Source of the DNA: Oscillospiraceae bacterium | Lineage (GTDB): Bacteria; Bacillota; Clostridia; Oscillospirales; Acutalibacteraceae | NCBI GenBank assembly: GCA_015066595.1 | Contig: SVNZ01000003.1 | Coordinates: 112,836-176,835 of the forward strand | Length of the DNA stretch: 64,000 nucleotides | Reading direction: 5' to 3' | Shown: in pieces, positions 2,440-4,844 of the stretch | How the letters are laid out: each line of letters starts with the position of its first letter | How positions within the stretch are numbered: the first letter of the stretch is position 1 | The notes under the pieces: generated by a model | The model's input: the letters and a program-made list of their open reading frames with translations, nothing else | What the model was told of the DNA's origin: nothing | Databases searched by the model: none | Position numbers and translations under genes: made by a program

Positions 2440-2444
2440 AAAAC

Positions 2445-2475
2445 AGCAGGGCGCCGTTGGTGTCCTGCTATTTTT
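2445..2475 (+). terminator. tRNA-Thr terminator
   Basis: AGCAGGGCGCC-GTT-GGTGTCCTGCT followed by ATTTTT. Confidence 0.8.
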
Positions 2476-2501
2476 AGTATAAAAAGGCGACCTGCTGGGG
2501 G

Positions 2502-2710
2502 CCCCGAAGAGTTAAAAACTCTTTGGGGAGAGGAGGAATCGCGATGAAGCAGGATAGCGATTAAAATCGCTAGAAGCAAGTACAGCGAATGACGACGATG
2601 TCGCGTGTTCGATTCACGTCTTCAGCTCCACGTCGTCGCAGGCTACACAGGTCTGCGACGTTTTTTGCAAAATCGTTGCTTGACTTGTTGTCCTGATTAT
2701 CCTCTCCAAA
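2502..2710 (+). other. Structured non-coding element (candidate MITE-like element or ncRNA) enclosing the tRNA fragment
   Basis: Nested inverted repeats: 2502-2528 hairpin, GGAGAGGA(2527)/TCCTCTCC(2700), 2555-2572 hairpin, 2575-2592/2673-2689 stem, GACGACG/CGTCGTC, 2634-2660 hairpin plus T6. Confidence 0.6.
2600..2630 (+). repeat. Exact 31-bp copy of the tRNA-Thr 3' end (att-core-like)
   Basis: GTCGCGTGTTCGATTCACGTCTTCAGCTCCA occurs at 2409-2439 and at 2600-2630. Confidence 0.95.
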
Positions 2711-3015
2711 ATCCGATGAGTGATTGTACGAAGACTATTCAAAATTATTATGCTCGGAGTTTTCTTGAATACTCGATATCGAGTACAGCAAAATTTTGTC
2801 GCTTATTATTGATGCGTAATTTGATTGTATAAAACTTAAAGGGTGGATAGTTATCCACCCTTGTTTATGTAATTTTAAAACTATTTGGTGTGTCGTGCGT
2901 TCGAAAAATTGATAGAGCGTGTTATATCAGAAGCAAGAAACACGTACAATCGTTGGTATTGTGTAAATCATATTAACCTATACTCAAATTGTCAAGAACA
3001 ATTGTAGGTGAAAAA

Positions 3016-3228
3016 ATGATAGAAATACTGGCTAAACGACTCAGAGAGTGCAGAAAAGCACGGGGATACACACAGATGCAGGTGTCGATATACTGCGATA
3101 TAACAGAAAAAGCGTATCAGAACTACGAGCTTATGACTCGTGAACCTAAAATCGAGATACTTATGCGTATTGCAGATTTATATGATGTTTCGCTTGACTA
3201 TTTATGTGGCAGAAGTGATGAAAAATGA
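3016..3228 (+). CDS. Small XRE-family HTH protein
   Basis: RLRECRKARGYTQ...YQNYE...EPKIEILMRIADLYDVSLDYLCGR; ATG 3016 after AGGTG. Confidence 0.9.
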   Translation: MIEILAKRLRECRKARGYTQMQVSIYCDITEKAYQNYELMTREPKIEILMRIADLYDVSLDYLCGRSDEK

Positions 3229-3235
3229 TTTTATT

Positions 3236-3266
3236 AAGGATGCTTTACTGCATCCTTTTTTATTTT
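3236..3266 (+). terminator. Intrinsic terminator
   Basis: AAGGATGC-TTTACT-GCATCCTT plus T-run. Confidence 0.75.
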
Positions 3267-3374
3267 ATATTTATATAACGAAAAAGCTGTAAACCCTTGA
3301 AAAAACCACAGAAATCCGTTATACTTAATAAGTTGTAAATTGCACTTAAATTTAAAAACAAAGTAGGTGTTAAT

Positions 3375-4844
3375 ATGAAGCTTAAAGAAACGCTTAACAA
3401 GGAGTATTTTTCCATCGAATTGTATAAGTATATTTTGAGTGCTTTGCTCGCTTGTGTTATGGGTATATTCATTTCGATGGTTGTTTTTGCAGATGCGATT
3501 TTATCAAAAACGGATACGGTTCTTATTCCTTTAGTGTTTTCACTCATATATTTTGCTGCTTTGCTCATTATCTCAAGACTCAAGGACATAAAACTGTTTG
3601 ATTTCTCAGTGATTGCAGCTTTACTTGCGGCAGTTGTTGTATGTAGAGTGAGTATGTTGCAGATGGTATCTATGGACTACCACAACTTTATATATAAGTG
3701 GCTGGAGTCTATGAGTAAAATTGACTTTTCTTCAGCTATCACAACTAAAATCGGTGATTATAATCTGCCGTATCTGTATTTCCTTGCGGTATTATCAAGG
3801 TTTGAAAACGGATGGCTTGTCTGTGTGAAAGCTCTATCGTGTATTTTCGATGTAGTTCTTGCGTACTACGTGATGAAAATAGCTTCACTCAAGATTAAGA
3901 GCAATAAAATAAAAGCATTGATTTTTGTGCTTACACTAGCGATTCCAACTGTGTTGCTGAACAGTGCGGGCTGGGGTCAGTGTGATTCCATATATGGTGC
4001 TTTATGTATCGGCAGTATTTACTATGCTTTAACTGACAAAGGCACAAAGAGTATGGTGATGTTCTCGCTTGCATTTGCATTTAAGTTACAGGCAATTTTT
4101 ATCATACCTATCCTAATTATATGTTTTATATTAGGTAAAATAGACTGGTACAAGCTTTTGATAGTTCCGATAGTTTATATTGCTTGTATGTTCCCTGCAA
4201 TAGTATGTGGAAGAGGTTTGTATGAAAGTCTTTTTGTGTATGTTGATCAGGCATCACAGACACAATACCAGAAGATGACCTTGAATGCGACCAGTATCTG
4301 GACATTGCTTGAGGATGGTGCTTATTCAACGTACAAATGGGTCGGCATAATGCTGGCAGCTTTAGTAGCACTTGTTTACGTATATCTTTGTTATATCTAC
4401 GCTGACAGAATCGAAACAAAAGAGCTTGTGATTGTTGCATATCTCACAACTCTTGCGTTACCGTTCTTTTTGCCTAGCATGCACGATAGATACTTCTTTA
4501 TAGCTGATGTGCTTAGCGTTTTAGTTTTTGTTTATGACAGGCGAAAATGGTATGTGCCTTTTGTGACGGTGTTTGCTTCGTTTGCGACTTATGCGATATT
4601 CCTTATCAATGTTGCCGGTTTGTACAACCTCAAAGTTTTTACAGTTGCACTGATGGTTGTGATGATAGTTCTGACTAAAGATCTTTTTGAAAACCTTAGA
4701 GCAAAAGAACCTGTGCGCACTTTCCCGATAGCTCAGAAAACTATTGTTGAAGATACTTTTGAAGAAGACAAAACTGACGATGTTCAAAGCAAAGAAGTTT
4801 GTCAATTTGCAGAGGAAAGCGAAGCGGAAGAAGCTTCGGTATAA
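3375..4844 (+). CDS. Polytopic membrane glycosyltransferase, GT-C fold (GT87/mannosyltransferase-like)
   Basis: Many TM segments; DY...W, DYNLPYLY, NSAGWGQCDSIY, KLQA, PSMHDRYFF motifs; acidic C-terminal tail. Confidence 0.7.
   Translation: MKLKETLNKEYFSIELYKYILSALLACVMGIFISMVVFADAILSKTDTVLIPLVFSLIYFAALLIISRLKDIKLFDFSVIAALLAAVVVCRVSMLQMVSMDYHNFIYKWLESMSKIDFSSAITTKIGDYNLPYLYFLAVLSRFENGWLVCVKALSCIFDVVLAYYVMKIASLKIKSNKIKALIFVLTLAIPTVLLNSAGWGQCDSIYGALCIGSIYYALTDKGTKSMVMFSLAFAFKLQAIFIIPILIICFILGKIDWYKLLIVPIVYIACMFPAIVCGRGLYESLFVYVDQASQTQYQKMTLNATSIWTLLEDGAYSTYKWVGIMLAALVALVYVYLCYIYADRIETKELVIVAYLTTLALPFFLPSMHDRYFFIADVLSVLVFVYDRRKWYVPFVTVFASFATYAIFLINVAGLYNLKVFTVALMVVMIVLTKDLFENLRAKEPVRTFPIAQKTIVEDTFEEDKTDDVQSKEVCQFAEESEAEEASV

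Follow-up and report, generated by a model that had tools for sequence, protein, structure and literature searches.

The tRNA-Thr gene of an Oscillospiraceae bacterium is followed by a strongly folded stretch of DNA that holds a second copy of the gene's own 3' end. The locus occupies positions 2440-2716 of a 64,000-nt stretch of contig SVNZ01000003.1, which at its full length is called the window here, and it raises the question of whether such a layout is a regulatory RNA, the remnant of an island, or an element of another kind. We conclude that it is probably a composite left by a family of small, gene-less, mobile structured cassettes, which in phages would act as split ribosome-binding sites (RBSs) and at tRNA genes would move as units. 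An intact copy, cassette A, would have been inserted behind tRNA-Thr within a 191-bp gene-less unit that runs in the order terminator T1, spacer, antisense arm, cassette A and sense arm. An older, decayed copy, cassette B, would have come to lie tail-to-tail at the CCA end and would now serve only as terminator T2. The main habitat of the cassette would be phages of Oscillospiraceae and Ruminococcus-type hosts, where it would sit between the Shine-Dalgarno (SD) sequence and the ATG of a gene. At tRNA genes it would move as a non-autonomous unit with arms copied from or matched to the T-arm region of the target, and an enzyme acting in trans is presumed to mobilise these tRNA-linked units.

Parts and folding of the tRNA-Thr locus

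2321-2349, + strand: promoter-like site of the tRNA-Thr gene (TTGAAA, 17-nt spacer, TATAAT, TG-extended)
2364-2439, + strand: intact tRNA-Thr gene (anticodon CGU), detected by ARAGORN; 69 bits against RF00005
2441-2475, + strand: terminator T1, stem 2445-2469, then T5
2482-2497, + strand: antisense arm, reverse complement of tRNA 2403-2418 (tRNA positions 40-55)
2495-2599, + strand: cassette A, intact; 61.4 bits, E ~1e-14 (covariance model)
2497-2501: 5' G-run of cassette A
2502-2528: P1 of cassette A
2529-2537: single-stranded SD-like linker of cassette A, AGAGGAGGA
2538-2542 paired with 2585-2590: P2 of cassette A
2555-2572: P3 of cassette A
2591-2598: tail of cassette A, GACGACGA
2600-2630, + strand: sense arm, repeating the tRNA exactly from position 46 (variable loop/T-stem boundary) to position 76 (CCA)
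2629-2716, - strand: cassette B, decayed and inverted, its 3' tail abutting the CCA of the tRNA fragment
2634-2666, + strand: terminator T2, stem CGTCGCAG (2634-2641) / CTGCGACG (2653-2660), then T6

The 3'-terminal 31 nt of tRNA-Thr (2409-2439) recur exactly at 2600-2630, a match that none of 100 shuffles gave. A first-pass annotation of this DNA had reported the repeat together with a GACGACG/CGTCGTC clamp, a terminator at 2634/2653 followed by T6, hairpins at 2502-2528 and 2555-2572, and two long-range pairings across the tRNA copy. All of these are present. The clamp (2591-2597 with 2631-2637) is complementary at 7/7 positions and its helix is mutually exclusive with the terminator, the pairing of 2575-2592 with 2673-2689 was seen in the minimum-energy fold, and GGAGAGGA (2527-2534) is complementary to TCCTCTCC (2700-2707). 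Region 2440-2720 folds at -108 kcal/mol, with z = -5.6 on the + strand vs z = -3.6 on the - strand.

Two further parts are absent from that annotation. The antisense arm matches the tRNA at 14/16 nt with an 11-nt exact core, GCGACCTGCTG (0/300 shuffles), and a -10-like hexamer lies 6 nt upstream of this core. T1 also carries tRNA-like sequence: its 5' strand (2441-2454) matches tRNA 2400-2413 (tRNA positions 37-50) in sense orientation at 86%, and its 3' strand (2459-2469) matches the antisense arm at 82%.

The minimum-energy fold of cassette A on its own is the consensus structure of its family (-34 kcal/mol, z = -4.8). Cassette B has lost P1, its linker has degenerated to GGAGAGGATAA and its folding is not significant (z = -0.5). 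Its covariance-model match, obtained with filters off, is weak but full-length (9.1 bits, E = 0.0086), and the reverse complement of 2631-2716 aligned to the genus-type cassette of genome G009 with a score of 81, compared with 18.7 +/- 3.6 for shuffles. Several genomes carry an intact cassette tail-to-tail against the CCA end of a tRNA. T2 represents the 3' hairpin of cassette B in reverse complement. At the tRNA-Met locus, the duplicated 3' fragment of the tRNA is followed by a T2-related hairpin whose sequence is that of the local cassette in reverse complement.

The folded stretch behind tRNA-Thr is no regulatory switch. The first-pass annotation had read the competing helices as a terminator/antiterminator switch, but the pairing arms are cassettes A and B, and orthologous loci do not keep the pairing. 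The pairing across the core, the clamp and the apparent switch result from A and B being inverted cassette homologues. The clamp is not a conserved feature either, as its CGTCGTC partner and the second terminator are absent at the orthologous loci of G013 and G021, where the tRNA fragment is followed by a second T1 copy (G013) or by an unrelated terminator (G021). Nor is T2 a device specific to this locus, since the same type of hairpin is a generic trailer (CGTCGTCGCA...TGCGACG-T6) that also follows tRNA-Gly and tRNA-Leu in this genome.

These results bear on the view that the stretch is a functional host non-coding RNA or cis-regulator, in which a tRNA-half RNA would carry such a switch or act as a tRNA mimic or processing substrate. 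The strong stability of the fold, the mutually exclusive helices, a potential pairing of GCUGGGG (2494-2500) with the acceptor 3' strand noted on inspection, and the -10-like hexamers before antisense arms described below would fit this view. We nevertheless regard it as extremely unlikely: the alternative pairing lacks conservation, its partner is a homologous arm that has decayed and shows no significant fold, cassette A lies between two strong terminators with no full promoter recognised for it there, and the copied tRNA piece varies from 11 to 31 nt depending on the locus, so that a T-arm/acceptor mimic is not general. Among the specific candidates rejected was a tRNA or tmRNA mimic, as ARAGORN detected only the real tRNA and the acceptor-like GCUGGGG/CUUCAGC pairing is not general. 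A small ORF after the SD of the linker was discarded because the following ATG is not conserved (AUG, GUG and GCG occur), and a 32-codon frame from the ATG at 2598 crosses the tRNA fragment and was judged spurious. The unit in the window is probably inert, given its position between two terminators, the lack of a recognised full promoter and the lack of a real open reading frame (ORF) after it. Such loci should be annotated neither as riboswitch-like switches nor as prophage scars.

The structured cassette family

Cassette A was assigned to a family of ~108-nt structured elements by BLAST against relatives, a pattern search and a covariance model. The stretch between the two tRNA 3' copies is conserved in same-genus species (BLAST), the G021 ortholog has compensatory changes in a hairpin, and in G019 the cassette module is located far from any tRNA. 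Comparison with other genomes, which the first-pass annotation had proposed for the sequences flanking the tRNA copy, showed that the cassette recurs in relatives within the genus and behind other tRNAs. The consensus opens at its 5' end with GGGGyCCCC and the hairpin P1 of 12 bp. The linker GGGGAGAGGAGGA, which is invariant, comes next, then a long hairpin of irregular build, and the tail GACGACGA closes the element. Within the irregular hairpin, P2 contains a single bulged base and is followed by P2b (3 bp), by an internal GA-NN-GA / GA-NN-GA motif with covarying NN pairs, and by P3.

Compensatory changes were found across the family. Among 17 hand-picked members, 94.5% of cells were paired, compared with 40-54% in slid controls, and 22/31 pairs changed on both sides. 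An alignment of 98 members, which was fitted to the covariance model and thus leans towards the structure, gave 91.3% paired vs 39-46% when slid, and 863 double-sided changes vs 260 in shuffles. The folding strand is fixed because G-U pairs are frequent.

The strict pattern CCCC-N8-30-GGGGAGAGGAGGA was detected in 30/401 genomes of the taxonomic family, representing 26/185 genera, and a reversed control gave almost none. A longer pattern, GGGGAGAGGAGGA-N50-80-GACGACGA, matched at least 120 species genomes and 95 IMG/VR viral contigs. Among the matches listed, the genomes were mostly metagenome-assembled genomes (MAGs) titled Oscillospiraceae, Ruminococcus or Clostridia; isolates or MAGs titled Pseudoflavonifractor, Flavonifractor, Lawsonibacter, Agathobaculum, Acutalibacteraceae and Acetatifactor were also matched, and a few contigs were labelled Patescibacteria or Peribacteria. 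Within the genus of the window, 28/61 species carry the cassette, with 1-47 copies each; G019, G480 and G025 are at the upper end with 30-47.

Searches of Rfam 15 with the window returned only tRNA, the next best match being YrlA at 16 bits vs a cut-off of 69, and HEARO, IS605-orfB and the ribozyme classes of this release gave no match to the window. Typical cassette members and 24 related loci likewise gave no cassette match in Rfam 15, returning only tRNA, a separate DUF2800 RNA and a near-threshold Gut-1, and the cassette was not found in the literature when searched by sequence and keywords. The family is absent from Rfam 15 and apparently uncatalogued. It is widespread in Clostridia of gut and rumen and in the phages of these bacteria, and its covariation is strong.

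Some copies occur in unusual settings. Genome G447 (L057-L061) has ~41 strict-pattern matches, in which the cassettes lie inside a larger GC-rich repeat that has inverted repeats on its flanks (CTTCTTTTCTGTCCGCTTTTC...) as well as other repeated modules. On two contigs labelled uncultured bacterium / Patescibacteria (L135:23-157 and L139:6333-6462), a cassette core with extended P1 sits 2-6 nt upstream of the 5' ends of tRNA-Ala and tRNA-Glu, and at L078 a cassette stands tail-to-tail with tRNA-Asn; these contigs were assigned to candidate phyla radiation (CPR) lineages. The Gut-1 RNA (RF01706) near match at L285:656-726 (G000:C13:200655-200725) scored 47.4 bits vs a gathering threshold of 50.

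Insertion of the cassette into other elements

Outside tRNA loci, empty and occupied forms of the same site could be compared. G019 has a cassette-free, 154-bp miniature inverted-repeat transposable element (MITE) whose terminal inverted repeats measure 50 nt, and in a 259-bp form of it the cassette replaces the loop of a central TGTCA-AGAC-TGACA hairpin. A second recurrent target, GCTGTCACC-GAAC-GGTGAC, was also found both empty and occupied. As in a non-autonomous mobile element, the cassette is gene-less and repeated, and has both empty and occupied sites. Judged from these sequences, the cassette is mobile or at least repeatedly inserted. Neither a target-site duplication at cassette insertions nor terminal inverted repeats belonging to the cassette itself were seen.

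MITEs with ~50-nt terminal inverted repeats (ACTAAGTAGCAATAAAA...) were noted at L384 (G019:C35:15839-16192), L024 and L013, with cassette-bearing forms of 259-345 bp. A variant MITE end, ACTAAGTATCATTAAAA, was seen ~24 times and may mark an autonomous insertion sequence (IS). The target motif GGCUCCCUUUG-N-AAAGGGAGCUGUCACC-GAAC-GGUGACUGAGGRAUUG was observed at L073, L083, L110, L111, L126 and L373, and in its empty form at L153; at targets of the L073 type the cassette replaces the loop of the second hairpin.

Phage copies and a putative split ribosome-binding site

On viral contigs the cassette lies between genes and points in the same direction as they do. A same-strand ORF of at least 60 aa begins within 60 nt in 73/98 viral copies, and in 32/98 its start lies at offset -1, 0 or +1 from the GACGACGA tail (GACGACG-ATG or GACGACGA-N-ATG). 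The downstream genes encode head closure proteins, head maturation protease, DUF2800-type exonuclease, minor tail, Dit, adaptor and neck proteins.

The exonuclease gene allowed the insertion point to be located. Among 80 phage loci with an 81-100% identical exonuclease, 72 were empty and 8 were occupied. Empty sites read ...GGAGGTACTGGACG|ATGCC and occupied sites ...GGAGG(G/A)TATC[cassette]GAG|ATGCC; because the sites differ in this way, the cassette is an insertion between the gene's own SD and its ATG. At occupied sites the upstream ORF stops at the UGA within GGAAUGA, and the native SD is displaced by ~110 nt, leaving no conventional SD near the ATG of these genes. The cassette brings an invariant SD of its own, GGAGGA, at the 5' foot of P2-P3, and at the 3' foot its 8-nt tail GACGACGA is followed by 0-1 nt and AUG.

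Folding of P2-P3 would bring the cassette SD to ~8-9 nt from the start codon. The phage sequences have the geometry of a split RBS, in which SD and start codon are separated by a hairpin that restores a 5-11-nt spacing. In phages, the cassette is therefore most likely a portable split RBS, which would let the insertion be tolerated by the phage gene. Alternatively, the transcript might be processed at the tail, which would yield a leaderless mRNA. The copy in the window precedes no real ORF, so the split-RBS geometry does not apply to it. A P0 helix flanking phage copies was considered and dropped, as on inspection it was present at the exonuclease site and not elsewhere.

A clear DUF2800 RNA motif (RF02960) was detected with 123 bits at L036:2702-2859 (-), and ~1.2 kb downstream of it there is a DUF2800 exonuclease gene with a cassette in front. 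One phage module is therefore served by two different structured elements.

Units framed by copies of their own tRNA

The layout of the window (antisense arm, core, sense arm) recurs behind ~12/41 tRNA genes of the same genome, each with its own arms. In this 1.7-Mb genome, gene-less units bounded by an antisense and a sense copy of the adjoining tRNA are thus found at about one-third of the tRNA genes. An inverted self-copy of at least 10 nt was found at 13/41 tRNA genes, 11 of them with the copy 40-70 nt downstream, just past the terminator, and 17 tRNA genes have at least 11 nt of their 3' part directly repeated within 600 nt. The studied cassette is carried by only 4-5 of these units (covariance-model matches), and the others have at least 2-3 other core types that share a CAGUG-loop hairpin. 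The cassette-bearing layout is also present at tRNA-Thr(CGU) in another genus and in one further genome, and the layout occurs as well at tRNA-Arg(UCU), tRNA-Thr(GGU), tRNA-Met, tRNA-Leu and one tRNA known by its 15-nt 3' end.

Where the antisense arm ends, the sense arm starts, with an overlap of 1-6 nt in ~10 loci. Cores are similar between different tRNAs (88% identity for tRNA-Pro vs tRNA-Leu, 84% for tRNA-Ser vs tRNA-Arg), and the arms match each unit's own tRNA. Four loci of the genome, at C1:3428-3870, C6:71640-72104, C7:4658-5137 and C11:34333-34780, hold 2.1-2.6 tandem units with 95-99% identity. The direct repeat often extends through terminator and spacer, as in G013, the tRNA-Leu locus and the tandem arrays. 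A -10-like hexamer stands 6-8 nt before the antisense arm in 8/14 units, compared with 3.7 +/- 1.5 in shuffles (3/500 reach 8), which is a hint that each unit may be a small transcription unit.

Loci with other cores were recorded in G000 at C1:3357-3870, C6:71581-72104, C6:523511-523900, C7:4658-5200 and C11:34333-34839 and in the regions of C6:100591, C6:389408 and C9:27879, behind tRNA Ser, Gln, Pro, Leu, Val, Arg and Asn genes. Their cores are ~110-150 nt long, contain an NNNNN-CAGUG-NNNNN hairpin and have no Rfam match.

A tRNA 3' direct repeat bounds the insert in the window, as at the attachment (att) sites of an island. A plain attL/attR scar would mean that an island or prophage entered tRNA-Thr through a tyrosine integrase and was then nearly all deleted, leaving 160 bp. 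Such an origin is distinctly unlikely, and the argument of the first-pass annotation that the locus is not a plain scar has gained support from the same layout behind many tRNA genes with arms matching their own tRNA. The direct repeat does start at the T-arm region, the apparent remains of a decayed island lie 5 kb from the tRNA-Thr(GGU) cassette, and neighbours of the cassette elsewhere include relaxases, type IV secretion system parts and a resolvase. Integrase and cargo are missing between the repeats in the window, however, where only 160 bp with no ORF, and hence no integrase remnant or cargo gene, are found. Random deletion would not produce one minimal gene-less layout (inserts of ~160-330 bp) at ~12 tRNA genes here and in other genera. 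Some units form tandems with 99% identity, and homologous cores have different tRNA-specific arms. The additional antisense arm is unexpected for a scar, and no phage carrying the tRNA-Thr core was found in IMG/VR.

The genome has five tyrosine-recombinase matches, none of which adjoins the unit in the window. One lies at L285:3123-4803 (G000:C13:203122-204802) and is a truncated integrase of which a C-terminal piece of 128 aa is left, after a Fic/DOC gene. The site has the look of a decayed island and is 5 kb away from the tRNA-Thr(GGU) cassette locus.

An origin with no dedicated element at all, by local tandem duplication and template switching at the inverted repeat that the tRNA T-arm region makes with a downstream antisense copy, with the cassette as a passive passenger, would account for the duplication of terminator and spacer along with the tRNA 3' end and for a T1 hairpin built from sense and antisense tRNA-like pieces. 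It leaves unexplained how homologous cores came to lie behind ~12 different tRNA genes, each time with arms that match, why other genera share the layout, and how the cassette was inserted into phage RBSs and MITE loops, and we consider it very unlikely.

The junction of the arms at one tRNA coordinate raises the further idea of a guide-like, self-propagating element that would encode a small RNA or form a single-stranded DNA. Its 5' antisense arm and 3' sense arm would pair with opposite strands of the tRNA gene to either side of the 1-6-nt overlap, direct a recombinase or reverse transcriptase to that gene and be re-templated for each target. Near-identical cores with different tRNA-specific arms, tandem units of up to 99% identity, -10-like boxes ahead of the antisense arm and a terminator after the sense arm are consistent with it, and IS110 bridge RNAs use such a principle (PMC11208160). 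We rate this idea as rather improbable. An IS110 recombinase is absent from the genome, and in the genus it occurs in 5/28 cassette-positive vs 7/33 cassette-negative genomes; the strand polarity is the mirror of that of IS621, the arms are terminal instead of lying in internal loops, and the phage copies mostly have no arms. The duplication that extends over terminator and spacer also fits Campbell-type or integrase-type insertion. The repeats extending through terminator and spacer favour site-specific (integrase-type) or Campbell-type insertion of a very small circle. A single ordinary integrase is disfavoured, because one enzyme would have to serve ~12 tRNA sequences.

For the mobile cassette family, the proposal of a tiny non-autonomous tRNA-targeting element made in the first-pass annotation held in outline, in that a 191-bp gene-less recurrent unit exists, and its arm-core-arm RNA layout did not. 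We tentatively suggest, as a possibility only, that the tRNA-linked units form an undescribed class of gene-less mobile elements specific for tRNA genes, with a folded core between a 5' arm antisense to the T-arm region of the target and a 3' arm identical to its 3' end (1-6-nt overlap), that these arms act as guides or as a splint on the two strands of the tRNA gene and are re-templated for each tRNA, that each unit is transcribed between a -10 box and a terminator of its own, and that the core doubles as the phage split RBS. The mechanism that matches arms to tRNAs may represent new recombination or retro-mobility biology.

Several observations weigh against a mobile cassette family with these two roles. 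No conserved neighbouring protein was found, as 75 flanking ORFs fell into 62 different Pfam families, and the IS110/DEDD recombinase, absent from this genome, shows no association with the cassette in the genus. About one-quarter of the phage copies have a conventional SD after the cassette, so the cassette SD is not always needed. That the cassette acts as RNA rather than as single-stranded DNA, and that it affects translation, is what we infer. The inter-arm helix is only 5-10 bp, with 8/10 nt at best in the window, and, as phage copies are mostly devoid of antisense and sense arms, phage cassettes and tRNA-linked units may have different spreading routes. Finally, the insertion at the window locus is common to the window, G013, G021, G027 and G009, and recent mobility at this locus is not supported. 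The strain comparison proposed in the first-pass annotation found G014 without the unit at tRNA-Thr, but G014 is a distant comparator. The same arms enclose two cassette subtypes, one in the window and G013 and the other in G021, G027 and one further genome; because species with two subtypes share it, the insertion is old, or its core was replaced.

Neighbouring genes

The genes around the locus are housekeeping genes: PNPase and an XRE regulator, and downstream a small XRE regulator, a 489-aa ORF and YchF. No integrase domain was found in the neighbouring ORFs to ~10.8 kb, the range covered by the ORF-by-ORF scan, and to this extent the earlier statement that no integrase is present holds. 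The small XRE regulator (2989-3228) and the 489-aa ORF (3375-4844), which has no Pfam match, lie between the tRNA locus and ychF. G013 and G009 have a CarD-like gene after the tRNA in their place, and 2989-4844 may have remained from a small island. At 2839-2862, a palindromic hairpin with a perfect 10-bp stem, AAGGGTGGATA-GTTATCCACCCTT, could terminate transcription in both directions.

Comparison with known systems

Tyrosine-integrase islands leave partial-tRNA direct repeats as attL/attR, and their integrase-less derivatives, the cis-mobilizable elements (CIMEs), undergo tandem accretion. Sublocation classes of tRNA-gene integration were reportedly set out by Williams in 2002. The locus resembles these islands in having an intact tRNA, an insert that ends in a tRNA 3' copy with identity from the T-arm or 3'-end region, tandem arrays, and a decayed integrase elsewhere in the genome. 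It differs in that the inserts are 160-330 bp long, contain no gene and carry an extra antisense T-arm copy, and in that ~12 tRNA genes of one 1.7-Mb genome have units with their own arms and homologous cores.

The CTX-phage attP(+) and integron attC are folded single-strand recombination sites. Like them, the units have an inverted arm, a structured spacer and a direct arm beside the host junction, are orientation-specific and form tandem arrays. Unlike them, the arm complementarity is 5-10 bp, and the phage folding strand is always mRNA-sense, which points to RNA. A folded single-strand att site was accordingly rejected for the units: such sites have an imperfect arm duplex of ~20-30 bp that imitates the target, and the arms here overlap by 1-6 nt and pair at 8/10 nt at best in the window.

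RUP, BOX, Correia and ERIC are bacterial MITEs or structured repeats. The cassette shares with them its short length, lack of genes, copy numbers (up to 47) and patchy occurrence between species. It differs from them in that it is no simple palindrome and keeps its structure with compensatory changes across at least 26 genera. The DUF2800 RNA (RF02960) shares these phage-like regions with the cassette and precedes the DUF2800 exonuclease module in them, but is a separate element ~1.2 kb away, to which the cassette gives no match.

In IS110 bridge RNAs, the guides lie in two internal loops and match opposite target strands, the 5' guide pairing with the bottom-left strand and the 3' guide with the top-right strand (PMC11208160). 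The resemblance to the target loop is that two segments flank a structured part and match opposite strands around a short shared core. Here, in contrast, the 5' arm is antisense to the left flank and the 3' arm sense to the right, the arms are terminal, there is no donor loop, and the internal loops are conserved instead of variable. Membership of the IS110 bridge RNAs was rejected on polarity, terminal arms and the lack of IS110 association.

A precedent for the phage copies is the split RBS of T4 genes 38 and 25, shown experimentally, in which a hairpin between SD and AUG restores the working distance (PMC3014915). In both cases SD and AUG are separated by a hairpin whose folding restores the distance, with the SD of the cassette at the 5' foot and GACGACGA(N)AUG at the 3' foot. 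Unlike in T4, the cassette hairpin is 60-70 nt long and conserved, with tandem G-A motifs, and is a portable insertion before many unrelated genes. If confirmed, this putative role would explain how selfish insertions survive in tightly packed phage late operons, and would provide a compact translation-initiation module for Firmicutes.

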